A stretch of DNA of 64,000 nucleotides from Podarcis vaucheri (GCA_965113315.1 OZ220375.1), one strand, 5' to 3'. Positions 13,344 through 57,503 are shown, numbered from the stretch's first letter. Made by a program: numbers and translations. Notes: generated from the letters alone by a model not told the origin.

Positions 13344-14786
13344 CTAGTCAATTCCGCGGTGCAGCTTGAGATGGCGGGAGAGATTGCTCAAGGTGATGAA
13401 CCCTTTGTGGCAGACGGTGCACTTGAAAGGGCGCTCGCCACTGTGCAGCAGCCGGTGCCGTTTCAGGTAGCACTCGTGCCGGAAGAACTTGCCGCACTCG
13501 GTGCACTGGTAGGGCTTCTCGCCGGTGTGCACCAAGACGTGGCGGTCCAGGTCCCGCGGGCTGCGGAAGTACTTTTCGCACTCGCTGCATTTGTAGAGTT
13601 TCTTGCTGGGCCGGGCGGGGAACGCGCGGAGGTCCAACTGCGGCAACAGGTGGCGTTCCAGCTCACTGCCGGGGCCTGACATCGGGGAAGCAGCCACGGC
13701 GTGGCTCAACTGGTGCTCCTCCAGGGTCTGCAAGTTCACAAAGGGCTGGCCGCATATCCCGCAGCTGAAGGAGGGCTCGCCGCCATGAGCAGTCAAGTGA
13801 GCCGCCAGGGTGTTGCCATTGGCGAAAAAGGTCCCGCATTCACACTGGTACAGCGTTTCGGGGGGCCGCATGTCCGGAGGGTGGCAGGTGGGGCAGCCCC
13901 TGCTGTGCTGCTGGGCCTCTGTCCCCCCATCTCGCGGCTCTTCTTGCAGGCCCCGCAATTCCAGCATCCCATCGCTTGGCGGAACCTTCCCAGAGCACAC
14001 TGGGCAGGGCGGGGGCCTGTCCTTGGCATGTGTGAGCTTGTGGCGCTCCAGCAGCGCCGCAGCGTTGAAGTCCCGCTCACAGTCGGGGCACTTGAAGGGC
14101 TTGATGTCAGTGTGGGCGAGCCAATGGCGCCGCAGTTCGGATGCCAACTGGAAATGGCGCCCGCAGGCCCCGCAGCCAAAGGGCGCGGCCCGGCCTCGCC
14201 CGGCGCTGCAGAGGTGCCCCAGGGGACTTTGCTCTTTCCCGCAGGCCAGGCAGCGGGGGGCGGGTGTCTGAGGGGCTGCGGCAGCGGGGGAGGCGCGGTG
14301 CTGCCGCTTGAGGTGGCGCCCCAGGCTGCTGCGGGAGGAGAAGCGGAGCTCGCAGACGTGGCAGCAGTAGGGCTTCTCCCCCGTGTGCACCACCTGGTGG
14401 TGGAGGAGCCCCGTGGAGTCTCGGAAGCCTTTGGGGCACATGGTGCAGCGGTAGGGGCGCTCCCCGGTGTGGCTCCGGATGTGGTTCACCAGGTTGAAGG
14501 AATGCTTGAAGCTCTTGACGCAGTGAGGGCACTGGAAAGGCTTGAGCTCGGTGTGCCGGGCAAAATGGCGGCGCAGGTCCGAGCGGTAACGAAAGCTCTT
14601 GTCGCACTCGGAGCAGTGGAAAGGGGCCCGGGCACCTGGCCCATGGTCTGTTAGGAGCGACGGGTCGTCCTCCGCGTCCGAGTAGAGAACGGCACACTCT
14701 TCCATGGTTCCGGTGGCAGTCCGGACCCCACCTGGGGCCTGAAGGGAGTGCTGGCCCTCTGGCCACTCTTCATCGCAGTTCTCCAT
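13344..14786 (-). CDS. FIZ1: FLT3-interacting zinc finger 1 (11 C2H2 fingers), single coding exon
   Basis: [68 protein letters not shown] and CERDFNAAALLERHKLTH match FIZ1 as I recall it. Acceptor ctttctctgtcccgtag at 14803 puts the likely start at ATG 14786 rather than 14879. Confidence 0.88.
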   Translation of the reverse strand: MENCDEEWPEGQHSLQAPGGVRTATGTMEECAVLYSDAEDDPSLLTDHGPGARAPFHCSECDKSFRYRSDLRRHFARHTELKPFQCPHCVKSFKHSFNLVNHIRSHTGERPYRCTMCPKGFRDSTGLLHHQVVHTGEKPYCCHVCELRFSSRSSLGRHLKRQHRASPAAAAPQTPAPRCLACGKEQSPLGHLCSAGRGRAAPFGCGACGRHFQLASELRRHWLAHTDIKPFKCPDCERDFNAAALLERHKLTHAKDRPPPCPVCSGKVPPSDGMLELRGLQEEPRDGGTEAQQHSRGCPTCHPPDMRPPETLYQCECGTFFANGNTLAAHLTAHGGEPSFSCGICGQPFVNLQTLEEHQLSHAVAASPMSGPGSELERHLLPQLDLRAFPARPSKKLYKCSECEKYFRSPRDLDRHVLVHTGEKPYQCTECGKFFRHECYLKRHRLLHSGERPFKCTVCHKGFITLSNLSRHLKLHRGID

Positions 14787-14914
14787 CTGCCCAACAGTGC
14801 CTCTACGGGACAGAGAAAGGACAGTGAAAGAATCAGAGTGGGACTCCATGGCCGCCAAGCCCTCCCAGTATAAAAGCATTCCCTCCCCCTGATTAAACCC
14901 CGCTATCCGGAACA

Positions 14915-17551: not shown

Positions 17552-18300
17552 AACTTCTTATAGGTGCCGACATTTTACGGGGGCGGTGGGGGGCCATTTC
17601 TTCGGAGGAAGGGGACAGAGCCTCTTCCCCCGCCACCAACCTCCCATAGCAGCAAGCAGCCAGGCTGGTGGTGGGGTGTTGACCTCTTGCGATAGCCTGT
17701 CCTCTCCACCCTCAAATCCAACCCCTATGGAAGTTCACAGGACACCCCACCCCCCACTCCGCCCCCATCTTTTCTGTGGGCAAGGAGGGAGGAGTAACAA
17801 CGGTCTCATCTTCGCCATCTTTACTGTGGGCACGCGATGAGGGACTGGAGGCTCGGTGAAGCGACATTTTTTGTGTGGGCAGCCGGCTCAAAGGTGTGAT
17901 ATTTACTGATATTCACAGCACCGTTCTGCACAATCTCAGGGCCATACTAACAAGAGTCTTGTATTTTTAGTGTAGGAAATAGGTTTATTATTATTGGTTA
18001 GAAGGGAGGGGGAGCGCGAAAACGATGGAAAGCACCCATCTTTCTTACTGGCAAAGGGAAGTGCAGCGAGGCCGCCATGTTTGCGCCGGGCAGTAAGCGA
18101 AGAGCTGAACGAAGGGACATGTCTTTGTTGTTACTACGGCAACTTCCCCGCACCATCCAATGGAGCCGCCATATTTGATGTGGGCAAAGAAGATTAAAGG
18201 TCATTTTTGACACTCAGGGAGGCGCCAAATTTTCGTTTTGAAATGCATAAACTAAAACAAAACCAAAACAGGTTTATCGTTCGCGTGGCCAGAGAAGCAC
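17552..18300 (-). promoter_or_regulatory. FIZ1: FIZ1 CpG-island promoter and candidate non-coding exon 1
   Basis: CpG-rich; minus-strand donor GTGAGT at 17551-17546; five co-oriented YY1-like motifs (17566, 17812, 17860, 18071, 18164). Confidence 0.6.
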
Positions 18301-20195: not shown

Positions 20196-21095
20196 TAATT
20201 TGCATGCAGAAGGTCCCATTTCAGTCCTCATGCAGGGATGAAAATGTCCATGTGAAACCTTGCATAGCTGCTGTTAATCAGTGTGGACAATGCATGGTAG
20301 TCTGACTCAGCATAAAACAGTTTCCTAAATCCTTAGGTGTTCTCTAAACTCTATTGGACCTAAGCTATTTAGCATCTTGAATTGTGGCTGGAGGCCTTTT
20401 GCAGAATTTGGAAACTGGTGCATTTTTTTTCTGGTAACTTCCTCCTGTTAGTTCAACAGTCTTCAAGGTCAAGCCAACATGTCATTTGTAGTCACATCAC
20501 AAAAAAATGAATGATGGCTGTTAGATCTGTACATGATCTTTGTGAGATAACCAGCCTTATACAACCAAGTCTAATTAATACACAAAAGGCTTGAGATCAT
20601 AAAGCAAGCTGTCCTTAACCTTGGGAGGGACTGGGTGATCAATCATATGGTTCAACCTCCAGTCTACCTGATGAACTCAGCATGTGAGGTCTGAGTTGGT
20701 TGCTGTAGCTCAGACTCTATGGCTCTTACAAGCTACTCTTGAGTTCCTATACCAATAATTTAGGATTTTCACCATTGTAAGTAAGTCAGGTTTTACTGAC
20801 TGTGCAACTTTTTCTGAATGCTGTATGGAAAAGTACATTAATCTGACCTTTGGAGAGTTTGTAAGTAAACCATTTTTTAAAACTTGTCAAACATATGGTC
20901 TTTTTCTACACTAGGAAAAGAGTGCAACTTTGGGGGAAAAACATCTTGAGGAGACATTTTGGAACTCACTTTAAATTAAGGGCATATTTTAAAGGTTTAA
21001 CAACCTCTATTTCCACATTTTACTTTGCTGCATGTTTTGTGATTTCAAACCTCTTGATCATGGCATCCAGGAATTCTCCTTTTTATATAACTATA

Positions 21096-21531
21096 CAGTG
21101 GTGCCTCGCAAGACGAAATTAATTCGTTCCGCAAGTTTTTTCTTCTTGCGAGTTTTTCGTCTTGCGAAGCACGGTTTCCCATAGGAATGCATTGAAAATC
21201 AATCAATGCGTTCCTATGGAGACCGTCCGGGGACAGAGGGGAAGCGCCGCGCGCCTTCCCCTCTGTCCCCGGACCTGTTTTAAAGCAAGGGAAGGGGCAG
21301 TGGGGAGAATCGCTTCTCCCCGTTGCTGCCCCTTGGTTCAAAAGGGGTCCGGGGACAGCGGGGAAGATGCGCTGCGCTTCCCCGCTATCCCCGGAGCTTG
21401 TGGGGCAAGCTTCATTTTGTGAAGCAAGCCCATAGGGAAATGCGTCTTGTGAAGCGGCTAAGAAAACGAAAAACTCCTTCGTCTAGCGAGTTTTTCGCCT
21501 TCCGAGGCGTTCGTCTTGTGGGGCACCACTG
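21096..21531. mobile_element. Tc1/mariner MITE (gcaagacg family)
   Basis: Same TIRs as 4987-5326, TA TSD. Confidence 0.85.
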
Positions 21532-22166
21532 TATTTCCTTACCACCAACAATCATTTCATCAGGAGAAACAAATAGTTTTGTGACTGAATCCAGGAGTAA
21601 TCAGAGACTGAATGTCCTTTGAAGCTGAACTCTCATCATTTTGTTCTCTAACTACATTCTCAAAACCAGAGGCAATTGGCACTTTTGCTACACAAAACAA
21701 CATGTATTTACTCCAGGTTAATTGAGCAAGGATAGCTAATACCCTTTGATTCTATACTGCTGCTCAGTAGCATTAAAAAAACCTGTTTCTCCCAGGTGAC
21801 ATCCTCCCCTTTAAGCATTCCTTAATGTACTCCTACTCAGCATTTTATTGTGTGATCTGCCTGAAAACTTTTTTATTTTTTAACTGCTGTTGGTTTTACA
21901 GTGGAACCTTGGGTTATGGCAGGGATCTGTTCTGGAGGCCTCACTGCAACCTGAAAATGACGCACATTGAAGCGCCGCATCTGCATATGTACGGTGCGAT
22001 TTAGAGCTTCTGTGCAAGCTGCAAACCCGGAAGTAACCTGTTCTGGTACTTCCAGGCTTGCCGCAGACATTCACCAAAGTGGACGCAAGCGGAGGCAGAC
22101 GCAGAACAAGGTTTGACTGTATTATTTTTACTTTTTAAGGTTGAATTTTCATTGTATTTTGTATTA

Positions 22167-23128: not shown

Positions 23129-26100
23129 TCATTCTAGGCCAATCCACTTCTTCACCACGCTTAGGATATCTCCAGCTAAAAGCAGCACCTCCTTCTCCTT
23201 GCATCTAAGGAAAGCCTCATTGGGAATGGTGGGTGAATTGTGGTAGCTGGGATACTGCGTTCTCTTGTCATCCACGCCATGCTGCCGGAGTTCCTCAATC
23301 TGATCAGGCAGCTTTTCCAACTCCTGTCCATAAGAAGCTACCTTACTAGCCAGCATTGGAAGAGTCAGATTCCTGTCAAAGCGACCTCCCTGGTAGTATT
23401 CAACTGCTGTCAGGGCTTTCTCCACTGTCCGGTAAGTCTTGTAAAGCAGCCATTCAGTGCTACCCTGACCAGCACTACTGGCTGCCGCCTTCAGATCACA
23501 CTTGGCTTGCCTTAGCCAGCGCCTGGCCTCCTCCAAGCAGTGAAGTTTTGATTGATCCTTTGAATACTTTGGCCCTCTCTGATGGAAGGACCAGAAGTTG
23601 TAGTTGCAGTGGCCTCCTCCTCCACCCCCACCCCACCCTCCTCCACCCCCACCCCATCTTTGCCTGGTGAATTCTGTACGCCTCTCTTGATGATGATGAG
23701 CTTGCTGGTCCCATTCACCCCAAAATTCAGAGCTCCTCTTGTAGGAACCTCTACTTTTGGGTCCCCCTCTGGAGCCACTGGGTGTTCTATTGTTCTCCAT
23801 CTCCTGGATCTTGTCTTTAAGGTATTTGAAAATTTCATTGGCAGAATCCTCTTGACCTATGTTTTTATCTGGGTGGTAGCACAGATAGAGTCTTCTTAAA
23901 GCCTTCCTCCTCTCATCCTCTGACAAGCTCCAGATTTCAGCCAAGCAGGCATCCACTTCTTTCTTTATCTCACTCAGTGGCCTCTCGTACCAATTGCCGC
24001 TTGTAAGTGGTCTTGCAGTACTGCTAGCACCAGGGGAGCCTTCTGCCAAGACCACAGCTTTACTCAGATCAGATGCAGAGTTATTCCTCCGGAAATGGTA
24101 AAGGTCATAGGCACTGACCTCTGCATGCTGCCCTCCTCCCAAGTCAACAAGGTATGTGTGTACTTGGCCAGTACCGCTCTGCCGTGGCCCAAGGGCTTCA
24201 AGGACCACAGCGTAGAGGTAATGCTCTCTGGGCTTGGAAGAATCCAGGTAACCCACGTAATCTTCTGGCAGAAAGGTGTGGAGGATGCTCATGTCCAGGC
24301 TGTCATACCATTCCTCAGGGATGTCCTCTCCAGGAGGAGGCAGGATATAGGCATTTAGGTTTGCTGGCAGCTGCAAGGGCACTTTGTTTTTCTCTAGCAC
24401 CTCAGCAATTTCCTTAGGCCTTTGGCAAACCAAAATCTGCCCAAGGACCATCAGGGCATCCAGGTTAAATCTTTGTCCTAAAAGCCTATTCAGTTCTGTG
24501 GCTAAATTGCCAGAGAACTCCACAGCCCACTGTGCACCTTTGCTCTCCTGGTGTGCAAGGTAAAGCTGCAGTTTGCCATCTGGCATTGTTGCAGCATACA
24601 CTGTCTTGGCACACTGGGTTCCTTCCATGCTCTGCGAATTGTGCACCATGGTTGTGCACACTTTTTCACAACAAACCACTTCTAGCCGCTCCGGTGAGAA
24701 GTGTCCTTCAAACATGCATTCCACTTCCTCTACTTTTGTCCCACCCTGCCATTTAAGCAGTGCAACCAGAGCATGCTGGAACTCGCAAGACATGAGTAGT
24801 TCTTGTAGCCAGTTTTGGAACTCACAGTGTTCCCCATAGGTACAGAGTTTCAGAGAGGACTCTTCCAGCTGCTCTTCAGTGATATCTGACAAGTTCTTGG
24901 GGCGCAAGGCTTCAGGCAGCTGATGCAGAAGCCTCTGCTGCTTATACTTGTCGTAAGGTAGCTGACATATTGAGAGATCTATCAGAAAGCGAAATTTGCA
25001 CTGCAAGCCCTGGGGTTCCTGGCCAGACTTGTAAAAACTAAAGATGAGGCTGTTTGATGGATATAGCTTCCCATCAACACAAGGCAGATGCAGTTCTTTC
25101 AGCTCTGAGAAATCCATTTGATCCTTTGCTTCATCTAAGAGCTGGAAGAGCAACTGAGTGGCCCTGAGCACTGTTTTGGTGAGGTTGGCATGCAGTTTAG
25201 CCTGCCTTACAGTCTCTGCATGAATTCTGGCCAGAACACTGGCATAGTGATGGATGCTTGCCTCATCTTCCACTCCCAATTTCTCCAGGACATCCATATA
25301 GACAGCTAGCTTTGGTGGTAGCTTGTAAAGATACGGCCGGAAGTCCTTTGGGTATTTTAATGAGACCACCACATTCTGGGCCTCTGCTACCTCACTGTCA
25401 TCCACTAGTATCACAGGGAATCCCTTTAAGCAGGCAGTCTCTAACATTTGCTGTTGCGACAAATAGCCATAAGCTGACTTTAGGACATCCTCTCGAGTTT
25501 TCCTAGCTTTTGGAGTGTCACATGGTGCCTGGCATACGTTTCTTAGATTCTCCAAGACTAAATGGGCTGGCAAGGTGCGCAGCACTCCCAGTTGTTTTAG
25601 GATGGTTTCTTTATTTTCCCCAACATATTCAACAGAAGGCAGAATGACCGCTGAAGTCCACACCAGGTCTGCTTTCACAGTTAACAAGGAACCTTGGGGT
25701 GCCACAGGAGTATTACACGGCACGTATGGCAAGTGAAGGCAACACAGATCTTCAGAGATCTTCTTTGGCAATAGGAAACGGATCTTGGACACTGTTTCCA
25801 GGAAGGCCTCTGAGAAGTTTTCACTGGAAAGCAAGTAGCTCCAGAGTGCTCTCCTCCTTTTATCAAGATCATGGGCACCGTCCTTCTGTTCTCCAGCCCT
25901 CAATGCTTCTTTTGCAATTTGGGTAGCCAACACTATAAAGCATTCCTCGGAGATCTCTTGCTGCAAGCCCACATCAAGTAAGAACTCTTTCAACTCCCAT
26001 ATATTCTCTGGCCACACTGAGTCATAGAATTTGCGTGGCACAAACAGAGAATCCATTCTCAACTCCTTGAAACACATTTTCTCCTCATAAAAATAGGACA

Positions 26101-29100
26101 CAGGACGCATCACACCTTGCTTGTCCCGGATGAAGGCGAAAGACTGGAATGTTGTCACCACTGTCTTTTTCTCGGCCTGATATTCCTTAGGATAATGCCT
26201 CTTGATAAGGAGGAGTAATCTCACAGCCTCCAGTACACGAGCTTCGGGAAGATGGGACAGCCGAGGCAAAAGCTGCTGTACAAACTGCTGCAAATCGTTC
26301 ATTACACCAATGCTCAAGCTCTTACTGAGATGTCGGTTCAGCAAGCTATCGCTCAGCAGGACAGTCTTCTCATCTACCTCATAAAGCTCCTGGAAGTTCT
26401 TGGTTTCCTTTGGAATCTTGGACTCCAAGATGTAGATATTCCTGTATGAAGCCAACGAAACGTGCTTCCCTTGGTGTGTTTTAAACACAGGCAAGGATTT
26501 CAACTTGCTTAGCAATCGATGGTCATTCTTCAGCGTCTCCAGTTGGCTGCTTAGGAACCGCAACAGCGCTTGAAACTCCCACCCTTTGAGCGCATCCCAA
26601 CACAGGTCATGATGAGCTGCCAGTTGTTCCAGCACTACTGTAGGATTCTCGATCTGCAACACACATGGCAGAATGCAATGTGCAGCGAGCTTTGGAGGCA
26701 AAAGAGAGGAGTCCAACTTGGAAAAGCCCAGTTTGTGGAGAATTTCAGTAACAGGGCCTTCTTGACCAGGCATTATCGTGTTGAGGGACTCAAGAGGAAC
26801 CAAGAACTTAGTGCAGCCACAACACACAGGGAGCATGGCACAACCTTTGAAGAGGGAAACTAGCTCTGCAAACATCTTTTTCATCGTGTCTGAATTCGCA
26901 GTCATGCAGATCTGGTTCTCAAAGAAAGCCCACAATTCACTGAGCCATTTCTGGCCTTTATCAGTACTGACCCTGTTGTCCAAAGACAGCATCTCCTTGA
27001 TGAAGGCCACAGAATCATCGAGTGTAAAATCCTTTAGGAACCCCATATTTACTAATAGCTGCTTGGCCTTTCCATCAATTCGGCAGCGAAAGAAACAGTC
27101 CTGATGGTGTGGGAAAAGATGGTGCACACTGCTATGGTATGGAGGACACTGCTGAGTGAAGCACCTCAGCATGTTATCTTGGGTCACCAGCAAAGGGAGA
27201 CCTTCCAAGCAGCTTTTGTCATCAGGAAGAAGCTTACTGAGGCAGAACTCGAGGAGAGCAGAACAGTCGCAGCTATTCTTCACAGGTGTCAGATGAAGTG
27301 GGCAGGGCAGGAGAAAGTTGGGCAGGTTCTTGAGGAAGCAGCAGAGGGAAGGAGAATCGAGGGTTAGGATATCAACTCCTGCCTTGACAAAATGGTCGCG
27401 TACCAATTGCAAATGTTGGAAGGCAGGGACAAAATTCATGCCCAGACTCTGAAGAGTAAGCTCAAGAACCTCACTTATCTCAGATGGCAGGAAATAGGGA
27501 TCACTGGTTGGGTGGCCCAGTCTGGGTGCACTCCAGTGCACACTCACTTCTTCCATCTTAAATCCATACTTGAAATTAATCTCCTTCTGGTACACAGGGA
27601 CCAAGGGAAGTTGCTCCATGTATGCCAGTTCATACACACGGGTCACCAGCTGTTGCCATGCTGGGGGGACATCCCTTGTCACAAATGGGAAATACTGCAA
27701 ATAGTTTGATTCCAGCCACTTCTCACATGCAGTCAGGGAGTGGAACTGCAGTGGTGTATCATTCAGCGCCTGGCGCAGCTCATAAAGCAAGTGGCAGTAC
27801 AATGGGGCAATGAGACACTGCAGCAGCGAGTTATTCCAGGACATATTGGCACCACCTTCACCATCATCCTTCCGCAAGCCACGGCGAGCAGAGTCCACAG
27901 CAAAGTTCCCATTGATGTGGATGGGAAGTCCTGTTTCTTCCAGAAGCGGCAGTGTGCAGAAGGCCCTACCAGGTGGCCGTCCATCAAAACAAGCTGCCAC
28001 ACCCCCACACGCCAAGTCCATGTTTTGCACGGTATTGTCACTCTCAAGCCCAATCTGCCTACCTACCAGCCAGTTGCTGGAAACGTTGGAGATACTACTC
28101 TTCACCTTCATTCTGTAGAAGACTCTCATTGGCTCGCCATCATCCATTCCACCTGCTGCAGCAGCCTGTTGGAGACGCTTCTGGTATTCCAGTCTTTCAG
28201 GCTCACCACCTTCAGCCTCTACCCGCAGCACCTCCTTCGGTGTCCCTCCCCTCTCACTTATTATAGAGAAGACCACGCAGCGAACGTGGTTGAGGAACAT
28301 CACAAGGCTGTCGGCTTCTTCAATGAGAGCCACCACAATTTTCTTCATGTCTTGCTCGGACACAGAGCTCTGGCAGATACGGGATGAGGCTGCACCATCA
28401 GGAGTACGTAAGGGTAACCGGAAAACTGTGCCTTGTTCCAAGTTAAACACATCAGGTAAAAAGGTATTATAAACATCACGGATGGTGTCTTTGACTTCTT
28501 TAGCAAGGTTGTACATTCCACCAGGTGAGATCTCATCAGAATCAGGGAGGTAGTGCAACATGGGGTCAAAGACGCACAGAGCACTGTCCCCCGTCACAAA
28601 GGCAGGGCAGTCAGTCAAGTGATAAACTGTACTGAAACCTAGTCCATATTTGCCGGTAGCATCTCTCCTCTCACCTTTGCCACCAGAACCCAAGCGCTGG
28701 ATCCCTTCTATGTCACACCTTTGGAAGGTGCGGTCATTGTAGATGCAAAGTGCCGGGCCTTGAAGTTCATTCCACTCCTTGCTGAAGACGCGATCAGTCG
28801 GGTGCTGTCGCCGATCCCAGACAAAGTGGACAAGATTTGCACCCGCATCGTCTGCATTCTGCAGCAGCTCCTTTAGCACATCCTGTGAAGAGGAGTACTC
28901 ACGGAGGATGTTGGCCAGCCGGGTACAGATTTCTTCCTTGGCTCCAAAATCTGTGGCCCAGGAAGAGAGACCCTGAATCCGCTGGCGTGACAAGACACGT
29001 CCTTTTGTGGTCTGAATGCCACAGCGCATAGCAATTTCCCGCGGGATCATGGCATGACAGAGCAGGGTCCCTTTCTCATGCGGAAGCCATGGTGTGTCAT

Positions 29101-32100
29101 CAAAGAGGAGTTTGGGCAATGGACGAAGGACTTTGTGTTTGTCTGGGAAAAATACACTCTGGGCTTCATAAGGACTCAACTGTTGACCCTCTGGCAGGGC
29201 TTCGGCCAGCCCTACAGTGATCAACCTGACAACTAGGTCCAGATGCCCTTTGGAAAGAGACTGTCCAGCTCCCTCCTTGGCCAAAGTCTGCAACACAGTG
29301 GCATAGTCCTTCACTTTGAAAGTCGCAGGCAACCCAACACACTCCCACAGCATCTTTTGCTTCTGGTACTCCTGAGGCAGCTGGAAGAGGTATGGAGCAG
29401 CATCAAAGAACAGGCAATGGGCCACACTGCACACTGACACAAAGCCAGTGTCCATGAAAACAAAGGGGAATGTCCTTGCCCTTTGGGACACCTCCACCTT
29501 GGACAGAGGGTTCATCTGCACTATTTCATTCAGGAACGCATAGCAGATTTGTGCTATGTTTCCCAGCTCCGTTCTGGACAGGGCATTGGAACTACGTGAT
29601 GCTTCCTCCAGTTGTGTCAGCACTGTAGATACTGGCGGCTGGCGATTCAGTCCTAGGAATTCCTTTAGCTCCATGGAGAGCTTCAAGCCTTTACCAAGGG
29701 CTGTCTTGTCCAGGACAGGCTCAGTCAAGCCTACCAGGGGGTGCTGCTTATGGCAGTAAACCTCTTTGGGGCAGCAGAGTTTGCGTTGGTTAGCAGGTAG
29801 TACTGCTGGCAAGAAGGGAATGTCTCTGAAAGTAACCTGGGTAGTGTTGCTGTAGCTTTCCTGCAGGTGGTCCTCAAGGAGCTCTAGGATGCAGCGGGCA
29901 CGCTGGCAGGCCTTGACTGGGTCATGACTCCACAAGGCTGCCACAGTTCTGGCTCGGGCTATCAGTTCCTCCATTTCTACACAATCTTTGGCCATGCCAA
30001 GATGCTCCAAGCGCAACAGCCTCTCTGGTTCCAGAAACCCTGTGCCCGTGGGGAAACGGCCATCTTCAGGAGCGTAGAGAGGTGCAGCGCAGCCCCTTGG
30101 GTGTACAAGTTCTTTAATGTTTCTCAGCAAACTATTGGGGACAGTTGGAATGCAAGGCCAGGATGTCAGGATCTTATTCACGCCAGCATCATTCATATCC
30201 AGAGCACGAAGAATGAGGACATCGCGATCAGGCACTGCCAGCTGAGCAAGATTGGGCAAAACAAGCTCACAGAGGAATCGTGCCCAATTGTAGGTGTTTG
30301 GCAACAGGACGTCCCCCTGGATGCAATCTCTGAAGTTCATCTTCACCCAATCTGGAACTGACACCGCCATCTTTGGCTCTGGCAAAAGTAAAGAGAAGAC
30401 CCTCAAAGCTATAGGTTCCAGATGCTCCTGACAGGTAATGTCAGAATTGAGGATACAGGCATCCCGGGCTGGGCACCATCGCTGTCCATCAGAAAAGAGA
30501 ACTGGCTGTTCCCCATCAACACCATTGACTAAGGCTTGGTAGAAGGCCTTGACTGTTTCACTGAATGGGTGCTTGGCACTGCGCACGTCAGGCCAGAAAG
30601 CATGGTACTCATAGTCCTCCAGCAATCCTTCCTCGTACATGTCCCGGAGCAGGGACAGTGCTCCAAGCCAGGCACCCAGCACGGAATCCCGTAAGAGTGC
30701 CTTGTTCCATTTCCCCTTCTCAGTAGCTTCCCAGAGTCCTTTGCGATTACTCTGCACAGCAAAGACTGCCGTGAGATGCAACGGGAGTCCAGTTTCAATA
30801 GGAAGAGGTAGAAAGCAGAAGGCACGGCCCTTAAAACCATCTACACCTGGAACCCATTTTCCAGCAGCAGTGGCGGGGCGGAGGGCCAAAGCAACGCTAG
30901 CAACAGGAGGCGAGAAATGGACATCCTTTTCTTTTTCCTGTTTGAAGACCTGAAGGGCTTCTCCTTGAGCAGAGCAGGAGTGCAGCAGGTAATGGCTGGT
31001 GACCACACTCGACTTCCATGTTGCTGTCAACTGCACAATAGTGGACGTACCCATCCTGACAAGTGCTTTCCTGCTCACTGTGGCTAATGGCTGGGTGGTT
31101 TCTGGGGAACTGGAACCATGAGGAAGGTGGGTCAGTGACACCTCCTGCACTTTTCTCAGGAAGATCAGCAGGTACTTGTACATCTCCCGGAAACCAATTT
31201 GCAAGGATTTGATTCGACTGGGTCCAAACGGATCACAGCAGATCTGAGAGTCCTCTGCCTCCTCCTCAGTGCGGAAGGGCAGGCGGAGGAGCGTGCCTTG
31301 GTAATCATCTCCAGGTTGACAGCCAAAGATTCCTCTGAACGGTCGAAATTGTTCAGGAAATCCAGCAGCGACTTTTCGGTTCAATGTGAGACGCATGCCT
31401 GGTTGGCCTGAATTACGGATATGCTTCCGAAGGTGGGTGATGTTTGGGTCAAAGATGAGCATGGTGTGGCCACTGAGAAGAGAGGGCACATCAGTGATGT
31501 GGTAGACAGTGCAGAAGCCCAGCCCAAAGCGACCAATCTTGTCATCCTGCCGTTCCTTGGTAGCTGCACCTAGACGGATGATGTTGGAGAAATCTGTCTC
31601 GGTGAAGAACGCATCATTCTGGGCCCAAAGTGCGGGGCCCTGGCAGGCAGCCATGCCCGGGTCCAGGAGTCCTTCAGTGGTACCGTTATGCTCACGGAGA
31701 TCGACTAGGAAGCGGCAAGTTTGGGCGCCAGCATCCTCAGCATTTTGCAGCAGTTCCAGGAACACATCTGCATCCTGGCTGTATTCACGAAGGATGTTAC
31801 GGATCCGGAGGGTGATTGGCTCCGAAGGACCCCACGCCTGAGCCTCCAACACTTCCAAGCCTGAAAACCGTGTGCTTAGCATTTCCACACCATGGAAGGT
31901 AGCAGTGGCAGAGGAAACAGATTCATGCACCAAAGTAGGTGGGTCGCCATCCAGCTCAGCAAGGTGCGCCCGATCCATATCACAGTACAGCACAGAACTG
32001 GCCGGGCGTAGAACAAAACCGGACAGTCCTTGAATCCGCACAGGCACTGGCATTTCCCTTTCTCCATGGTAGCCACGAGCGCACAGCCAGTCTAGGACAG

Positions 32101-33930
32101 CTATCACGAGGAGCAGTTCAGCATGCATGCCGCCTTGTGGTCGGGCATTGATTTGATCTGCCAACTTCTGCATTGCTTGGCACACTTCCTCCTCTTGTGG
32201 TAACTTATGGACCCCCCATGCTGCAAACAGCTGGCTGTAACCTTGGAAGTCCAGAGGCACTCGTGGCATCAGGGCTGTAAGGTCTAAGCCATCAGGGTAG
32301 GCCAGCACCACATCTGCAGCCAAGGAGAAGCCAGTCCCATTCCACACCACAGGTCCCACAGGTGGCTTCTGGAAGTCCCGCAGGTGCTGTTGCATGTGCC
32401 GATAGATGCTGTGCAGCTTTGTAGTTAACACAAAAGCCTCCTCAGGGTGACATCCCTGTGCCAAGGCAGCTAGATTCTCCATCACGTTCTCTGGTGGAGG
32501 AGAGTTCTCCAGACCCAGTTCTTTTGCAGCTTCTGGCCGAAAAGCATTAGTCAGTCCCATGACCAGCCCGACAAGAGCAGCGTACTTCTCCGAGCGAAGC
32601 AATTCAGGTGCCAAGAAATCTCCAGCTGCCGCCAATGTGGAAGTGTTGGTGGCAGGCACCCAAGGCAGGGACCGCAGCCGCTTCAGCTCCTTTAAGGAGA
32701 AGTGTGAGAGTAGAGGAGTCTCATTGCAGACCCGGATGAGTGCCTGTGATTTGGCACTGGCATCTGCAGCCTCTTGCAGTTGACCAACTTCCTCTGCAGC
32801 CATCAATGCATCTGCTGGACAGACAGCACTGAGATCAGATTTCAGGCCCAGAACACGAAGGGTTCGCAGTGCTGCTGGCTCCCGGAAGGGCCCTGTGGGG
32901 AAGCGGCAAGGTCTCAATAAATCCTGCAAAGTGCGATTCTCTGGATCATAGAGGTCACTGGGCCTGCCCAACCTTCCTGATCCGCAATCCAGGAATGGCA
33001 GCTCACGACACAAAGTTTGCAGCTCTCGGCTCTGGCTGAAGAGGGAGTCCCCATTGTGCAGCACCCACAGCATGAGCCGCTTGGCTTCCTGTGCCCAACT
33101 GGCATATGCCCCCTTCGTCATCGCCTTGATGCACAGCAGGCACAGATCCGGTGTCCCCAGCAGCTTCTGCCCGATTAGCAAGAGCAGGTGGCGTTCAGCT
33201 TCATTCTGACACAACAGCACAGGCTCTGGAGTTAGCAGATCCGAGGGCACTGGTGGAACCAGGTTCTTCTCTAAAGCCAGGTGGTGCTGGGCTGGCACCA
33301 AGCCAGACCTGGTGGGTGGAAGGAGGGAGGGCATCTTGAAGAAGAGTGGCAACTCAGTTAGGACTTCGGCTTCTTTGGGGGAAAGCGACGCAGCCGTGGA
33401 GAAAAAAGCACTCAGGCTCTTGATCTGGCAGGTGGGCAGAGATGCAACGCGACCAGCCACAGATGCCACCCCTAAATGGGCAAAGACCTGCAAGACACTC
33501 CCAGGCGTGGGTTCTAGGATGTACTCTCTCAGCTGGTGGTGGCACCATTCTGGCTGCCAGCTCCGGACCATAGTGCATCCCAGTCTCTCCAGAATGCCAG
33601 CCACTTCGTCCGGCAGACAACGCCCCTCATGGCTCTGGAACAGCAGAGTAGGCTGAGGCAGCAGCCGTGCCAATTGGATTCCACTGTGGGAGTTCTGTAG
33701 AGGAGTCAGTGGTATCAGGGGGCATCCCTTGAAGGGTGCCAGGGAGGGAGCATGGCGACTCAGGAAACTCCAGAAAGCAGAAAGCCACTCAAGCGGGGGC
33801 TGTTTTGGGTACTCCTTTGGGCACCAAGCTACAGGAGCAGGGTTGCTGCTGACCCAGTCCTTAGGGAGAGATCCACGAAGGTTCTGCTCAATGACATTTT
33901 GATCCATGGAAACAAAGTTCCTGAATAACC
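23129..33930 (-). CDS. Sacsin-like protein, giant last coding exon (10,802 bp): SRR2, SRR3, J domain, HEPN
   Basis: Open frame with [46 protein letters not shown] and EARRWLRQAKCDL; acceptor (ct)n-catattcag at 33931, phase 1 matches the upstream exon. Confidence 0.95.
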
Positions 33931-38459: not shown

Positions 38460-38571
38460 CTTGGGTGCTTGCCAGCCCCTCTGAGAAAAGGCTCTGGGTT
38501 CCAAAACTCCGTGCATCATAGAGCAAGATCACCTCTTCAGCCCCCGCATCATCTGCATTTTGGATCAGCTC
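38460..38571 (-). CDS. Sacsin-like coding exon 3 (112 bp)
   Basis: cttcctgaag|...|gtatgg; [37 protein letters not shown] (GHKL N-box). Confidence 0.92.
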
Positions 38572-39114: not shown

Positions 39115-39202
39115 TTTTAAGATCTGACCCCCATCTGGGTACTTGCGGAGGATACCCTGCAAGTATTTGAGGACAGGAGGTGATTTTTGTCGAAAGCCCT
39201 TC
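39115..39202 (-). CDS. Sacsin-like coding exon 2 (88 bp)
   Basis: ctttctttcag|...|gtaagt; KGFRQKSPPVLKYLQGILRKYPDGGQILK resembles the start of sacsin SRR1. Confidence 0.9.
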
Positions 39203-41437: not shown

Positions 41438-41460
41438 CTCTTCTTCTGCCCCTGAGACAT
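41438..41460 (-). CDS. Sacsin-like coding exon 1 (exon 41468-41438; ATG at 41460; MSQGQKK)
   Basis: cttttgcag|GTATCAAC ATG TCT CAG GGG CAG AAG AAG AG|gtgaga; phase 2 joins exon 39202 in frame. Confidence 0.7.
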
Positions 41461-41802
41461 GTTGATACCTGCAAAAGTGAGGAGAAAAATGCAGAATGAG
41501 GAAAAAATTGAGTCTATAATCTCACCAATACAATTTGCACATTGGTCCCCACTGAACAAAAAGAGCTCATAAACTATTGTTCCTTCTGTAAATGGACATT
41601 TTTTAACAAAACAGACAAGAGGAATCACTTACCATGATGTTACAAACACACACCCCCACTCATCTCTCATCAAAGGGATTTTGGAACAATAGAAAACCCT
41701 GCCAGGCTGCAGTTTCAGATAGGTAGCCGTGTTGGTCTGCCATAGTCAAAATAAAAAAAATCCTTCCAGTAGCACCTTAAAGACCAACTAAGTTAGTTCT
41801 TG

Positions 41803-45591: not shown

Positions 45592-45830
45592 CGCGTCTCT
45601 TGGAAGATGCAGGTGCGCAGCTTCCCGGCCGACGATGACTAAAGAGCAAAATAGGTCCGCCGCCCTACCTCGCCTCAAGGCGGAGGGCGAGGGAAGCAGC
45701 GGCTGCTGCGCTTTAAAGATGCCAGTCGCTTTCGATACCGGCGAAATGGAAACCGAAAGCGATTTCGCTCCGTTTGGGAAAGAGGCGGGGAATGTCTCGG
45801 AGCTGAGGAGTGGGGCGGGCACTTTTAGAG
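45592..45830 (-). promoter_or_regulatory. Sacsin-like gene CpG-island promoter / non-coding exon 1 with ISRE-like element
   Basis: CpG-rich; minus-strand donor GTGAGT at 45591-45586; GAAATGGAAACCGAAAGC at 45743-45760; GC box at ~45812. Confidence 0.65.
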
Positions 45831-47655: not shown

Positions 47656-47699
47656 ACACCTTATGAACTACAATTCCCAGCACCCTTAACAAACCCCAA

Positions 47700-51960: not shown

Positions 51961-53249
51961 TTAACTATGGATCTCTATGGCGACTCTCATAATGAAAAAG
52001 AGGACCTGTCCTGGAAAAAGAGTATATGGCAACCCAGCATCCTGTAATCACAGTGGCCAACCAGATGCCTGTGGGAAGCAGAGCCTGATTGTAGAACATT
52101 AGCCACTAATAGCATGCTCCTCCATGGATTTGTCCGACTCACTTTTAAATGTTGGCTTTTTGCAATTTAGTAGCACCACAGAGAGCTTGCTGGGGAGACC
52201 ATGCATTAAAAAGGGACTCAAAAATAACTTAAACAAGGTTTTAATAACAAAAACAAAAACTCCTTATACACTAAATACATCAACAACAAACCAGACCCAA
52301 CCACCAACCCATCCCCCAGGGTAATGGGAGAGCTAGGTGCTGCTCCTTATATACTACACCCAATTGCCGACACAGCTTGATTAACACAACTCAGCAGCAC
52401 CTGCTATGTTTCACAGCTGTAAGACTGGGGTCTCGTTATTTGCCCTGGCCCTTAAAGACATACACAACTTGTGAAGCAATAATGAACCTTCACATTTTAA
52501 AGTGACCATTCAACATTAAAGCCATCCAGTTTGGTGTTCTCCTGTGGGAGTGAATGCCAAAGTTTAACTATGGTATGCTTTGTTCAAGAAGTATAATAGA
52601 ATCCTAGAGTTGCAAGGGACCGCGAGGGTCATCTCCTGTGATGCAGGAGTCTCTTCCCCAACGCGGGGCTGGAACCCACAACCCTGAGATTAAGAGCCTC
52701 AGGCTCTGCTGACTGAGCTAGCCTTTGGTTTGCCCCGAATCTTCCAACATACAGCTTCACATGGACCTACTGTTATGAGATCGGGAGACAAACTTAGCCT
52801 GTCCAGGTTCGCAAGATGCATATATTTATATATTTCTACCATGCTCCCCGCACCAAATGCCCTTTCCTCCTAAACTAAGAAGCTCAAAGCACTCAATTTT
52901 TTTTTGTGTGGGGGGGTACTTTTCAAGCTCTACAGTATCTTGTCTGAGTTGTGGAGACCAGAACTCTACACAATGTTCCCAGCATGGAAAAGGGGGGGGG
53001 GGTCTGCCCTTAACATCATCAGCGCAGGCGGCCAAGCGACGAGGAGAAACAGAAAGTCTTGGATTTCCACGACAAAGAGTCCTTTGGCACCAGAAAGACC
53101 AGCTGATTTAGTGTGGCGCTATCTGTCATGGAAGAAGACCACAGCTCCTCCGATGCGTGAATCCTCCTCCCAAAGAGGCGTCGAACTGGAATTGGCACAC
53201 ACGCATCCCCTGTCCCTTTAAAAGAGTTGCATAGAAGGGAGCGTTCTGT

Positions 53250-53673
53250 CAGACGCTGTTTCTCCCAGCACTGCAGCGCTGTGGTGGGAAAAGCCACGTC
53301 GAGGGGGGGGGGAATCTCCGTTCTCTGCAACTCTTAAAGGAACAGGATGACGACGACGACTCAAGACCCCCCCTGCACTGAGCAGGCAACCCTGGTTTGG
53401 GCTCTCCCGAGTCTTTCCAACCTTCCCCGGGAGGTTCTAGGCACTGGCGGGTCGGCGCTGGGACCCAGGAGGCGCTTCCGACTGGCGCGCTCGCCTTCTC
53501 CGCCGGGTCCATCTGCTGGGTCCGTGCGCCTCCCGGATGCCCGGCTCCGACCAGCCCGGCTCTTTTGTTCTGCAGCGGCCGGGCGGCGAGAGGTTTCCCA
53601 CCGGACGCTCATCTCCCCACCCACCGCCGGCCCATTGAAACCTTCAGTTGCCGCAGATCACAATGCAAAACAG
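53250..53673 (+). promoter_or_regulatory. ZNF524-like CpG-island promoter and candidate exon 1
   Basis: CpG island ~53030-53950; donor CAG|GTAATA at 53674; strong acceptor ttctcccgtctccgcag at 56336. Confidence 0.6.
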
Positions 53674-56378
53674 GTAATAGCCGCTGCCTATGCCTCCTGG
53701 TTTGGGTGGGTAGCTCTCTCCCTCGCCCCCCGCTCCCCCTTCCTGCCCAGCCTAGATCACAAATGGGGCGGGCGGGGAAAGCTTTGCAGCTCCGGGCGCT
53801 TCTCTGCAGGCTGGGGGCGCAAGGAGGAAGGGAGGGAGCAGGACCCTCGATCTGCGAGGTGGGCGAGAGATGGTTTGCATTGCAACGGGTCTGCTCCCTT
53901 TAAGCGAGACTTGTTTGCGTTTAAGGGATCGGGGTCGAGCCGGGGATTGTTGTGATGAAGATGATTTTAACGCAAATGGTTGTTCTAATGCATTCCTCCC
54001 CCTCTTACCGTTCCCTATCCAAGGGGAATCCAGCTCCCTTAGAAGCCCCTTCTGTTTATTTATTTATTATTATTTTTTAAATAATCCCAAATGCCTTCGG
54101 GCTGCCTCGTGATGGGAGTGAGGGAAGGGCACTCAGCACATGCCCAGAGGTGCCCTCTTCCCTATACTCGAGGAAAATCAGCCCAAAAACAAAACACAAA
54201 AGAGGGGGGCACTCAGGATCGTTCTAGAATCTGTCGCTAGATTCTGGAAGATTCATTGGCCCAAGGCTGCCAAAGTCTCAGTTCAGATTAAGCAACGAAG
54301 CTGGTTCTTATGTTATGGCTGTGACAGGGACTTGGTCACAGGAATTTAGCTGAAAGGTTGTGCATGACTCCCTTTTATCCAGTGTTAACAATCTGTAGGA
54401 TTGGTGGATTGTGGAAATGAAATGAATTGGATGTTGCTGATGGGGGAATCTCTTTTCCTAATTCAAATTGACAGCAACATGGTGAATTTATACTCTCCCT
54501 ATTCATCTTTTCTTTTCCCCCTTAACATTTCCAGTAGTGGATGCTGTTGGACTTTAGCGTTTGTTTGTTTAGAAAAGTGCAAAAGAGCTGGATTTGGCAA
54601 CTTGATGCATAGCATGGTAGCTTTAAAATGAATCAACCAGGGTTGTTTTTTTAAAAGTATTTCTCAAAGTTAAATTTTGAAAGTAGGGTTAGAAAATGGT
54701 CAGAATTCAAACGCAATCCACTGAAACATTGCTAAGCTTCAGATCTGTGCAAAATGTAATTGCCGTTCTAGTCGGTTCTATTTTGTATTTCAACATATTT
54801 CTGTAGAACTGGACGAGCAGCATCTGGAGAAAGTATTTGCAGAGAGGCTGGGAGACTGCTCTTTATCAGCAGATACCAGTTAAAAATGTATTAATATTCT
54901 GCTTAGGCTGTTTTCTAGGGCTGTTTGGAAATGGGTTCCAGAGCAGAACAGACTCAGCTCTGAGTCCTGCATTATAGCTGTGCCAAGAGATACCTGCTAG
55001 GTTTGTCTCCTGGTAATACAGATCTACATCTAAGTAATGGCAAGAGGTAATTCCCAGCAGATAAGCAAGTGAGTTTCTGCAGCTGACATCTGCTGTATCT
55101 TGGGGATAGATGGCAACCCCCAAGGAGCCCTGGGAATTACATAGTTTGTGCAAACTATGTTTAGGGTACATATTCAAATGTCCTAAGCGTTCCTCCTTAA
55201 CGTCTGTAAACAAGTCTGCTCTACTTGCAAAAGTGTGATGCACATTGCAATAAGGGATATAAGGCAAGGGTCACACATAGAATTGCAATCTCCTTCTTTC
55301 TATCCTTGCCTCAGAGTCAAAGCCCCCACCTCCTATGCATGATCAAACTTGGTTTCTTCTCAGTTATCTGGAATAGCTACCCAATCTGCATCCTTGGAAT
55401 GGCTAATTCAGTTTAGAATTCCCACTTCACTCATGAGTGCATATTGAAAGCTGGAGGAAAACTGCACGCTTGATCTGCCCTGGGTTCTGGGTATGGCAGG
55501 ATGGTTAAAATTAGATTATTGGTGTTAACAGATCTTAAGTATGAGTAGTGCAGACCCTCTTGCTGATGCAGTGCATGTTCAAGTTAGGGTACCCTCGCAT
55601 GCAAATGTCATTAATGTACAGTGAATAACTATACACACAGTTATTCACAGATGTAAAATGCATGTCTTTGTGTATATGTTTTTGCTCACAGATACCTTGT
55701 AGACATATGCATGTTTGCATTCCCATCCACAAGAGAAGATATTATCTGCAAGACTCTCTTAAGACCAATTTAGACTGTGCACATGTGCAGACACTGTACA
55801 CCATTATATCCATGCTCGAGTGCGTAGTCACACGCACAATTCAGTGTATATTTTAAAAGAACTGCACATACGGTTAGAGATTCAGGTAAGTGTGCACAGA
55901 GTGCACATATACAGTTAGGGTTTCTTTTAAATGTTTTAGATTTCAGCCCACTTTGGAGGAGGCATTAACTGGTGAGGAGGCTGGGGAATTGGAATCTCAT
56001 TCATAGTTTATGTAACTTGAGGGTTAACCCTGCTGAGTTCAAAAGGAATCACTTCCGTAAATGTTGCACTCTTGATCTCTAAGATGCCTAGGGTACTAGC
56101 CAACGAAGCCATACTCCGAGTAGACCCACAGAAATCAGTGGGCCTACGCTGAGTGTGGCTCAGGTGGCTATCACCCCATGTCTTTTGGAATGAATACTTG
56201 GATGTATTCTTGGGGTCTGAAATGCAAAGATGGTAGTGGCGCTTATACTTTTGCAGAAGACCAAATGCATTGCTGGGGTGGCGGGGTCTTCCTGATGGGC
56301 TTCTCTGTGGTTCTCACTGTTCTCCCGTCTCCGCAGCGATGTCCCTGTAGCTGAACGCGCTCTTGTTCCTGGTGCCCA

Positions 56379-57503
56379 ATGGAGCCATCTCACAGGTGGC
56401 ATGTCGACAGGGGTGATGGGCATCCAGCGGAGCTGCAGGCAAAGGCTCGGGTGCTGGTGCCAGGCGGGAGTAGTTGGCCAAGAGCGGAAAACCATGGCAG
56501 CGTCGGGCTTGAAAACCAGGTGATAGAAACCTGCCCCCCAGTTCCTTGGGCTCACTATATGCAGACCCCACTCAGCAATGACAGCCCCCAGAACCACACG
56601 GCCTTAGAGGACAGGCCCTCTCATCCCGAGATCTACAGCATTGCCCTGTGGGGGCCCAAACTGCATTCGGCGCTGACCAGGCACAGAGGGGGGCGGTCCA
56701 GTGCACAGGCCTCCCCTCCCGTCTCCAAGCATCTGGATCCGCCAGGAGAGGGAGACGCCGCAGACGAAGGGTCCATGGTGTTGATTGATGCTGAAGGGGT
56801 GCCCCACACTGTGTCACGCCAAGAGGTCGAGCAGGCTGGGCAGATGCAATCCTCTGAGCCCGAGCTGTTGGCATCAGCCCCGCCGCCCCGGCAGCTGTAC
56901 TTCTGCCCCATTTGCCTACGGACGTTCCTGTACCAGTCGGACCTGGAGCGCCACAGCATCACCCATTCGGAGAGCAAGCCGTACGTGTGCCGCGAGTGCG
57001 GCAAGGCTTTCAAGCGCTCGTCGCACCTTCAGAGGCACAAGCACATCCACACCGGCGAACGGCCCTTCAGTTGCCCGGTCTGCCGCAAGGGCTTCCGGGA
57101 ATCTGGGGAGCTCCTGCGCCACCAGCGAGTCCACACCGGGGAGAAGCCGTACCAGTGCCAGATCTGCCGGTTGCGCTTCACGGAGCGCAACACCCTCCGC
57201 CGACACGCCAAGCGCAAGCACGCCCGTGAGACCTACTACCAGCGCTCCGTCGAGGAGGGAGGCGGCAGCTGGACGACGGCAGGAGACTGGGAATCGGAAG
57301 TGGTGGCGGGAAGCAGTGACTGGGGGCCGGAGGAACTTGGGAGTGGCTGGACCAATGAATCGGTGGAGGACTGGGTCGGGGATGGGAGCCACTGGGGAGA
57401 AGCTGCAGAAGGCGGGGCAGGAAGCACTCCAGTAGCTATGTCACAGATACCAGAGACAGAACACAGCAAGGACAAAGACAAGCCTGGGATCCAGCCCTCA
57501 TAA
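56379..57503 (+). CDS. ZNF524: C2H2 zinc finger protein, ZNF524-like (4 fingers, acidic Trp-rich tail)
   Basis: [13 protein letters not shown] motif, [33 protein letters not shown] and [19 protein letters not shown] match ZNF524 as I recall it; synteny with FIZ1. Confidence 0.8.

Follow-up and report, generated by a model that had tools for sequence, protein, structure and literature searches.

The window analysed here is a stretch of 64,000 nucleotides from Podarcis vaucheri, and the coding frames read between positions 13,344 and 57,503 confirm the order and strands proposed in the sequence-only reading: FIZ1 (-), a sacsin-like gene (-) and ZNF524 (+). The sacsin-like gene, and the clade to which it belongs, are given the working name SACS2. 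FIZ1 is a single coding exon (13344..14786, - strand) for 480 residues with 10 C2H2 fingers by pattern count. Its best full-length matches across tetrapods are FIZ1 and mostly carry that name (Pogona 89%, turtle 71%, alligator 70%, caecilians 52-57%, mammals mostly 48-56%). A promoter and a non-coding first exon of FIZ1 are predicted from the sequence at about 17552..18200 (- strand), with a predicted donor after 17552 and with ATGGCG motifs that we take to be YY1-like. The FIZ1 promoter does not lie in the CpG-rich patch at 21.0-21.5 kb, which belongs to a non-autonomous DNA transposon with terminal inverted repeats (21095..21535, unstranded). ZNF524, at the other end, is a single coding exon (56379..57503, + strand) for 374 residues, close squamate matches of which carry the name ZNF524-like. 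Its four C2H2 fingers give one continuous match to human ZNF524 (PDB 7YSF, E=6.9e-51) and are distinct from ZNF581, a ZNF581-like paralogue being a separate gene about 34 kb downstream. No mammalian ZNF524 is among the 120 matches listed for the lizard protein. On protein matches, both flanking genes are thus the orthologues they had been taken for.

Further downstream lie frames that we presume, mainly from gene order, to be ZNF865, ZNF784 and ZNF581, followed by EPN1, in agreement with the mammalian gene list. To the left of FIZ1, a histone cluster stands in place of ZNF579, so the region does rearrange; a turtle ZNF579 query gave no match in the P. vaucheri genome among 95 candidates scored of 3,108. 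The earlier statement that each gene has its own CpG island holds for SACS2 (45.5-46.0 kb) and for ZNF524 (53001..54000, + strand, its predicted promoter) but not for FIZ1, the predicted 5' end of which is below the CpG threshold; the proposed distance of ~35 kb between the FIZ1 and ZNF524 promoters is still right with the FIZ1 5' end at about 17.55-18.2 kb. A bidirectional promoter common to ZNF524 and SACS2 was ruled out, as SACS2 is served by a separate island at a distance of 8 kb. The arrangement is unlikely to be an assembly error, because it agrees with neighbouring accessions in Podarcis lilfordi (ZNF524-like CAI5790881, sacsin-like CAI5790883/4) and with a king cobra scaffold of 806 kb that carries FIZ1 together with the sacsin-like gene.

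SACS2 is encoded on the - strand (CDS 41460-23129) by seven coding exons of 31, 88, 112, 147, 1,435, 89 and 10,802 bp, all with AG/GT ends, which give an intact frame of 4,231 residues with no internal stop. The first (41438..41468) carries the ATG at 41460 and no ubiquitin-like (UBL) domain, and the resulting N-terminus agrees with those of annotated orthologues. It is followed by exons at 39115..39202 (88 bp; 86 bp in SACS, with an upstream intron of another phase), 38460..38571 (112 bp in both genes), 37363..37509 (147 bp in both), 35511..36945 (1,435 bp; 1,483 bp in SACS) and 34927..35015 (89 bp; 92 bp in SACS). The giant last exon runs 10,802 bp to the stop (23129..33930) and contains sacsin repeats 2 and 3, a J domain with HPD and a HEPN domain with TQYPSYH. 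A non-coding first exon is predicted within the CpG island (45592..45700, - strand, donor after 45592) from the CpG scan, the sequence and the coverage by contigs of run X1, which extends to about 45.7 kb as estimated from bin depth. These contigs, from a related lizard, fuse the 112-, 147- and 1,435-bp exons directly and place 89 letters, the size of the 89-bp exon, between the 1,435-bp and giant exons; run X1 is RNA by the program's guess, none of the listed runs being recorded as RNA. Raw-read depth over the SACS2 exons is below 1x in runs X23, X24 and X21, which we do not read as a sign of high or low expression.

Pfam SACS matches are found in both large exons, HEPN is also matched, and the DnaJ match is below cut-off. 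The protein has three Hsp90-like sacsin repeats, with ExxQNAxDA and GxxGxGF motifs present three times each and ATPase motifs intact in all three. The HPD of the J domain is present in the window protein and kept in 76 of 80 clade members, and the HEPN domain matches the human sacsin structure 3O10 (E=1.6e-20). The three GHKL repeats, the HPD-bearing J domain ahead of a C-terminal HEPN, and the SACS exon layout identify the gene as a sacsin family member; in the ESM Atlas only a generic 'Sacsin' cluster was found.

The true SACS of P. vaucheri is located on contig C18, carries the UBL exon, groups with vertebrate SACS and adjoins a sarcoglycan gene; the neighbour of human SACS is SGCG. SACS2 lacks the N-terminal UBL, falls in a separate clade and has no sarcoglycan neighbour. 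Besides the C18 gene, a scan of N-termini detected this domain in the fish SACS query, in lamprey and in two hagfish, and in no others. Alignment of the introns shows that five of the six coding introns are common to the two lizard genes in position and phase, which bears out the proposed DNA-level duplication rather than retrocopy. The two proteins are 31% identical. Lizard-fish identity is 38% for SACS2 vs 74% for SACS, and the corresponding tree distances (1.9-2.5 vs 0.36) indicate about sixfold faster evolution of SACS2.

Trees and AU tests were computed with IQ-TREE under LG+F+G4, with a further test under a C10 mixture (5,000 resamplings, fewer than advised); the zebrafish sacs2 sequence was left out. 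SACS2 forms one clade (SH-aLRT 100) that follows the vertebrate phylogeny back to sharks, and lamprey and hagfish group with SACS (SH-aLRT 100), the UBL of which they have. A duplication confined to gnathostomes is rejected under both models (p at most 0.0025), and SACS2 likely split from SACS before lampreys diverged, with the proviso that it is a long branch, the placement of which can be distorted by that. Within the clade, a grouping of the tetrapod and teleost lineages is rejected (p=0.002 and 0.02) and a two-paralogue tree is not rejected (p=0.34 and 0.22). Since sturgeon carries both lineages and in view of these AU results, the induced teleost gene discussed below may be a sister paralogue of tetrapod SACS2 and not its orthologue.

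Among 74 matches, 57 are named clade members (20 squamate, 6 turtle, 17 amphibian, 13 ray-finned fish and 1 bird), with no mammal and no crocodilian among them. Sharks, lungfish, gar and a tinamou add further members, making two birds in all. The mammalian absence refers to protein databases, and the main search, which scored 2,422 candidates, missed even mammalian SACS. Tetrapod-type sequences account for four of the 150 representatives listed (gecko, tinamou, frog-like and salamander-like), in 50% clusters that can conceal members, turtles having no representative of their own. The literature search found no description of the clade, and databases label its members 'sacsin-like'.

Outside lacertids, synteny was followed as contig linkage and not as exact gene order. 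SACS2 shares a contig with FIZ1 in five turtle assemblies and with ZNF579 in five, and it lies with FIZ1 on one 45-Mb contig of a caecilian. In the FIZ1 cluster, the turtle proteins annotated as ZNF579/771 were set aside as a different gene (about 30-35% identity to FIZ1). Comparison also excluded the amphibian zinc-finger proteins on the caecilian FIZ1 contig (P0267 and relatives) as ZNF524, and none of the zinc-finger proteins there was identified as that gene. In lungfish, the FIZ1-like and sacsin-like genes are both placed under a 2,000,000,000-base contig, which is uninformative on linkage. In human, where the two genes are adjacent, about 6 kb at most separate the end of ZNF524 from the 5' end of FIZ1, which leaves no room for SACS2; the wolverine gene list (ZNF579; FIZ1; ZNF524; ZNF865, with nothing in between) agrees, and neither interval retains the gene. 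Of the two histories first suggested, the clade reaching back to sharks, the turtle and caecilian linkage and the tight human spacing support that of an ancient paralogue deleted in mammals, and the same clade and linkage evidence speaks against a move of the gene into this place in reptiles. We consider it likely that the position is ancestral for tetrapods and that the gene was lost in mammals. The loss may not be confined to mammals, as no crocodilian copy and only two birds were found.

Two other histories were weighed against this one. SACS2 could be an old paralogue that moved locally between FIZ1 and ZNF524 in squamates or sauropsids, mammals keeping the ancestral head-to-head pair and having lost SACS2 from a different locus. 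The exact order is known only from the window and the P. lilfordi accessions, the locus numbers of FIZ1, SACS2 and ZNF524 in Lerista are 40 and 93 apart, and P. vaucheri has undergone rearrangement to the left of FIZ1, all of which would suit such a move. Against it stand the caecilian contig and the turtle accessions, in which SACS2 lies close to FIZ1 or ZNF579 within one small contig (Malaclemys XP_053865866/XP_053865877, Natator XP_074794127/XP_074794129), and we regard it as improbable. It is extremely improbable that the gene is a copy of SACS made in reptiles or in the teleost WGD, that it is a retrocopy, or that it is an assembly artefact. What speaks for this group of readings is the attribution of zebrafish 'sacs2' (si:dkeyp-118h9.7) to the teleost genome duplication, in the part of that paper available (PMC8395086); the AU test rejects both the reptile-specific (p=3.6e-07) and the teleost-WGD tree (p=2.7e-37), members occur outside teleosts in sharks, gar, sturgeon, lungfish and tetrapods, introns are shared with SACS, and independent assemblies concur.

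A predicted IRF/ISRE-type element, a triple GAAA-NN-GAAA-NN-GAAA (45743..45759, + strand), lies some 150 bp upstream of the donor predicted for exon 1, within the proximal promoter of SACS2 as in interferon-stimulated genes. It was spotted by eye after the fish induction papers were known, with the viperin gene of P. vaucheri serving as a check on the ISRE consensus. Over its first 16 bases it is the same as the viperin promoter element of that genome. The triple element is the sole site in 464 kb scanned and was matched in 12 of 20,000 simulations, the chance for any given 300-bp promoter being about 6e-4. No such element was found in the promoter regions of FIZ1, ZNF524 or SACS of the same genome, and OAS, used as a control, has an ordinary ISRE and no triple. 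The exact 16-mer has five sites in the 1.6-Gb genome, namely the SACS2 promoter, the viperin promoter, a position upstream of a HELZ2-like gene (HELZ2 being interferon-stimulated), and sites on C1 and C42 to which no gene could be assigned. With six sites for the reversed control there is no genome-wide enrichment, and the argument therefore rests on position alone.

Fish genes called 'sacsin' or 'sacsin-like' are induced by poly(I:C) or virus according to three reports (PMC3534563, PMC11357929, PMC8875540). The cod qPCR primers for the poly(I:C)-induced 'SACS' map to cod SACS2, with 10 of 12 residues matched at the printed amplicon spacing vs 4 of 12 for SACS. The primers of the induced lumpfish 'sacs-like' also match SACS2 best, by a narrow margin (score 63 vs 54 for SACS repeat 3), and those of the repressed lumpfish 'sacs' map to true SACS. 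In sea bream, the reverse primer of the uninduced 'sacs' encodes GQTTPP, a peptide that SACS contains and that none of 69 clade members has. By these mappings, the 'sacsin' that virus induces in cod and lumpfish appears to belong to the SACS2 clade, true SACS being repressed or unchanged. The induction reports cover teleost members only. No 'sacsin' row is present in a crocodile viral-mimic supplement or in the part searched (two of five files) of a python supplement, and the literature search found no data on tetrapod induction; from promoter and clade, SACS2 is likely to be inducible in tetrapods. The sequence-only reading had not mentioned this likely interferon-regulated, antiviral side of the gene.

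In the proposed mechanism, infection would switch SACS2 on through IRF or ISGF3 factors that bind the triple element next to the first exon, and the three Hsp90-like ATPase modules, with a J domain predicted to recruit Hsp70, would act on protein assemblies of viral or virus-induced origin, binding and remodelling them. This chaperone-type step is tentative and somewhat doubtful. The HEPN domain lacks the conserved Rx4-6H motif of HEPN RNases: Q occupies the R position in 77 of 77 clade members and H is kept in 72 of 77. As the catalytic arginine is missing, the domain would more likely bind RNA or nucleotides than cut.

The same domain could make SACS2 an antiviral RNase, its HEPN dimer cutting through QxxxxH once the ATPase modules sense infection, by analogy with RNase L. 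RNase activity has been proposed for some animal sacsin HEPNs (PMC3710099), invertebrate sacsins keep RxxxxH, and the clade combines an invariant Q with a mostly retained histidine that SACS has lost. However, the arginine is replaced throughout the clade, the residue two places before Q is variable (K 31, T 19, R 14, others 13; R in the window protein), and Q also occurs in lamprey SACS, which has no H, so that we find this improbable. A further alternative accepts the same history and sees tetrapod SACS2 as a constitutive or general-stress chaperone with a chance or vestigial ISRE-like element. It would accommodate the CpG-island promoter, the spliced contigs from a run without known stimulus, the lack of tetrapod induction data in the literature search, and an induced teleost gene of another sub-lineage. 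The low chance of a triple element equal to that of viperin over 16 bases, and a rate that suits host-pathogen conflict better than housekeeping, make it unlikely.

Gene structure, splicing, clade, rate, motifs and promoter element of SACS2 were observed directly. Our preferred reading, which is probably correct, is that of an intact second vertebrate sacsin, likely split off before lampreys, likely at its ancestral tetrapod locus, likely lost in mammals and likely an interferon/IRF-induced antiviral gene. A stronger version, to which we give slightly less than even credence, holds that SACS2 of jawed vertebrates is a 500-million-year-old dedicated interferon-induced antiviral ATPase/J-domain/HEPN effector with QxxxxH; that the fish 'antiviral SACS' is this family and not the ataxia gene; that its deletion in mammals made the head-to-head FIZ1-ZNF524 pair; and that defence would be the older sacsin job, neuronal SACS being derived and slowed. 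If true, a very large, uncharacterised effector joins the vertebrate interferon arsenal, missing in mammals and invisible to mammal-centred ISG screens. It would explain why 'sacsin' ranks high among the induced genes in some fish studies and is unchanged in others, the primers lying on different paralogues, and the second fish sacsin would be no redundant teleost copy. ARSACS research would gain a natural UBL-less paralogue and a UBL gain dated to the SACS branch, and mammals a candidate head-to-head promoter pair born of gene deletion. New here are the predicted triple IRF/ISRE element of the SACS2 promoter, viperin-identical over 16 bases, and the primer-based placing of fish 'sacsin'.

Among known systems, SACS (sacsin, the ARSACS gene, human 13q12; PMC8745260, PMC3629688) is like SACS2 in its three GHKL-type repeats, HPD J domain, C-terminal HEPN and giant last exon. 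It differs in the HEPN motif (RYPDLL vs QYPxxH in SACS2) and in its neighbours (a sarcoglycan gene vs FIZ1 and ZNF524), and SACS2, unlike SACS, is UBL-less, has the triple ISRE-type promoter element and was not found in mammals. Invertebrate sacsins (amphioxus and others; PMC3710099), for which immune or stress roles have been proposed, share the UBL-less layout, which is therefore likely ancestral; they keep the full RxxxxH motif, whereas the SACS2 clade has Q in place of R. In the parts available, the fish papers (PMC8395086, PMC3534563, PMC11357929, PMC8875540) name their genes SACS, a paralogue or a teleost-WGD copy, whereas the clade described here is older and reaches tetrapods; the induced cod and lumpfish 'sacsin', by primer mapping, appears to belong to the same UBL-less clade as the window gene, possibly as a sister lineage. 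Viperin/RSAD2, which is interferon-stimulated, has an element equal to that of SACS2 over 16 bases; it, OAS and HELZ2 encode proteins unrelated to SACS2, and all three are kept by mammals.

The sacsin-like gene that the sequence-only reading placed between FIZ1 and ZNF524 is real and was correctly read: it has seven coding exons on the minus strand (31, 88, 112, 147, 1435, 89, and 10,802 bp) with an intact frame, and it is flanked by orthologues on both sides, FIZ1 on the minus strand and ZNF524 on the plus strand. The product is 4,231 residues long with no internal stops, and Pfam recognises sacsin repeats and a HEPN domain in it, with a weak match to DnaJ. It is 91% identical to the Zootoca protein and clusters with Podarcis and Lacerta proteins, and the internal exons are joined as predicted in contigs of X1, a sequencing run from a related lizard that the tool guesses to be RNA. 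A glycine-rich, low-complexity stretch (window ~23600-23750, minus strand) links the J domain to HEPN.

Beyond ZNF524 lie frames read as ZNF865, ZNF784, ZNF581, epsin, and myosin heavy chain, the three ZNF names being presumed from gene order. The order agrees with the mammalian one given for wolverine and cattle. Directly left of FIZ1 is a histone cluster (window 2957-3313, and on contig C34 as far as 15 kb beyond the window's left end) of H4, H3, and H1 genes, some as inverted copies; ZNF579, SBK3, and SBK2 occupy this spot in mammals, and the cluster is a local synteny break. A LINE fragment, which we take to be BovB-like, lies at 46839-47660 between the sacsin-like and ZNF524 promoters.

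The gene is not SACS itself, which is found separately on contig C18 of the same genome, with a UBL exon and an adjoining sarcoglycan gene; the lizard's two proteins share 31% identity, and the C18 protein is 74% identical to a fish SACS. We refer to the clade of the window gene as SACS2. The C18 gene has exons of 86, 112, 147, 1483, and 92 bp followed by a giant exon, and the alignment of intron positions bears out the proposed DNA-level duplication, since five of six coding introns agree with SACS in position and phase. The last intron of true SACS holds a near-full-length LINE (C18:26535720-26540647).

Searching with the C-terminal 500 residues of the window protein gave 74 matches: named SACS2 proteins (20 squamate, 6 turtle, 17 amphibian, 13 ray-finned fish, and 1 bird), three further SACS2 members without a name, a SACS protein from one fish, sequences from lamprey and amphioxus, and 11 distant sequences; no mammalian or crocodilian protein was among them. 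Of 762 representatives in an index-free search, 150 were listed; all of these were classed by best match, nine were looked up by name, and 55 of those newly returned were placed in a tree. Only four of these 150 were of tetrapod type and none was left unexplained; the look-up by name brought in two cartilaginous fishes as well as lungfish, gar, and a tinamou. Malkoha and tinamou retain SACS2 on a long branch (proteins P0066 and P0376). No SACS2 of another bird, and none of a crocodilian, was found in the protein searches made, which reflects either loss or missing annotation. Mauremys mutica apparently has two copies on one chromosome (loci 001752 and 002093; P0196, P0202, P0203, and P0205), and the Platysternon orthologue (P0023) is mislabelled "leucine-rich repeat-containing protein 16C" in databases.

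In full-length trees of 36 and 20 rows SACS2 is a single clade (SH-aLRT 100). Lamprey and hagfish cluster with SACS and have the UBL as SACS does; it is absent from the clade of the window gene and from amphioxus. Zebrafish sacs2 has been named and attributed to the teleost duplication in PMC8395086. An origin in the teleost whole-genome duplication is rejected by the AU test, as are a reptile duplication and one that postdates the cyclostome split, the last also under the C10 mixture. Two gnathostome copies are compatible with the data (AU p = 0.34 and 0.22); teleosts may accordingly carry a sister paralogue of the tetrapod gene rather than its orthologue. Sturgeon has two deep lineages within the SACS2 clade and tarpon two copies (P0045 and P0056; P0050 and P0051), which suggests further old duplications inside it.

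The sequence-only reading had left a choice between deletion of an ancient paralogue in mammals and a move in reptiles. Contigs that carry both SACS2 and FIZ1 are seen in king cobra (a scaffold of 806 kb), in Lerista, in two geckos, in Hemicordylus, and in the caecilian Rhinatrema (45.4 Mb); eight other squamates have SACS2 on one contig with a ZNF524-like gene. Among the cluster members listed (for FIZ1, 15 of the 39 read) SACS2 is on the contig of FIZ1 in five turtle assemblies and of ZNF579 in five, and turtle SACS2 accessions are often close to those of FIZ1 or ZNF579; all these shared contigs give linkage, not gene order. In a human ChIP site list, sites "in FIZ1" (60,802,703), "upstream of FIZ1" (60,802,828), and "downstream of ZNF524" (60,808,717) are so spaced that a 12.7-kb coding sequence has no room. 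Taken with the turtle and caecilian linkage to FIZ1, this is most simply read as deletion of the gene in the mammalian lineage.

SACS2 evolves ~6 times faster than SACS, with lizard-fish distances of 1.9-2.5 vs 0.36. A triple GAAA-NN element (45743..45759, plus strand) precedes the predicted donor of the first exon by ~150 bp; it occurs once in 464 kb, and its genome-wide density gives a chance of ~6e-4 per 300 bp. The same 16 bases are found in the viperin promoter of this genome. The exact 16-mer has five sites in 1.6 Gb vs six for the reversed control: the window gene, viperin, a site ~22 kb ahead of where the coding frames of a HELZ2-like helicase gene begin (C25:102362122), with a CRE-like site nearby, and two without gene assignment. 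The triple element is absent from the FIZ1, ZNF524, and SACS promoter regions of this genome, and the OAS promoter has an ordinary ISRE. As read from sequence, the fast rate and the predicted promoter element may be signs of an immune gene.

"Sacsin" recurs among virus-induced genes of fish (PMC3534563, PMC11357929, and PMC8875540), and we told the paralogues apart by translating the published qPCR primers. A cod "sacsin" transcript is reported as induced 10- to 17-fold on an array, and the cod pair, read in swapped orientation, matches cod SACS2 at 10 of 12 residues vs 4 of 12 for SACS. Two lumpfish paralogues are regulated in opposite directions (PMC11357929): the pair for the induced "sacs-like" best matches SACS2, by a narrow margin, and that for the repressed "sacs" matches true SACS. 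The reverse primer for an uninduced sea bream gene encodes the SACS-only GQTTPP, the whole pair aligning poorly. The literature found, including the searched parts of PMC13562644 (python organoids) and PMC5702629, had no data on SACS2 induction in any tetrapod.

Many SACS2 members are already annotated "sacsin-like" or "sacsin" in databases. Part of this story may already stand in gene-tree databases and in an ISG catalogue for zebrafish. No title or abstract opening on a pan-vertebrate paralogue, mammalian loss, or promoter was found in a search that mostly lay outside subscription literature, and the word "paralog" is absent from PMC3629688 and PMC8745260. The interest of the locus goes beyond synteny alone.

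At the HEPN site the SACS2 clade has Q in 77/77 and H in 72/77; jawed-vertebrate SACS keeps R and has lost H, and invertebrate sacsins have both. Lamprey SACS (P0061) reads TQYPDVL, with Q as in SACS2 and H lost as in SACS. The SACS2 HEPN thus lacks the Rx4-6H motif expected of an RNase (PMC3710099); the rival reading takes it for a variant RNase. The window protein keeps the motifs in all three ATPase modules, all six motifs are found by pattern in 41 of 54 full-length SACS2 members, and HPD is retained in 76 of 80 clade members. Given this conservation and the HEPN result, our preferred reading of SACS2 is a restriction factor of chaperone type, induced through IRF, whose HEPN would serve for binding. 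Its effector step is inferred: IRF-driven induction would be followed by ATP-driven chaperone action with Hsp70 recruited, and the HEPN would more probably bind RNA or nucleotide than cleave RNA. From what is established for sacsin and the J-proteins, the intact motifs of SACS2 point to an ATP-driven, Hsp70-recruiting chaperone.
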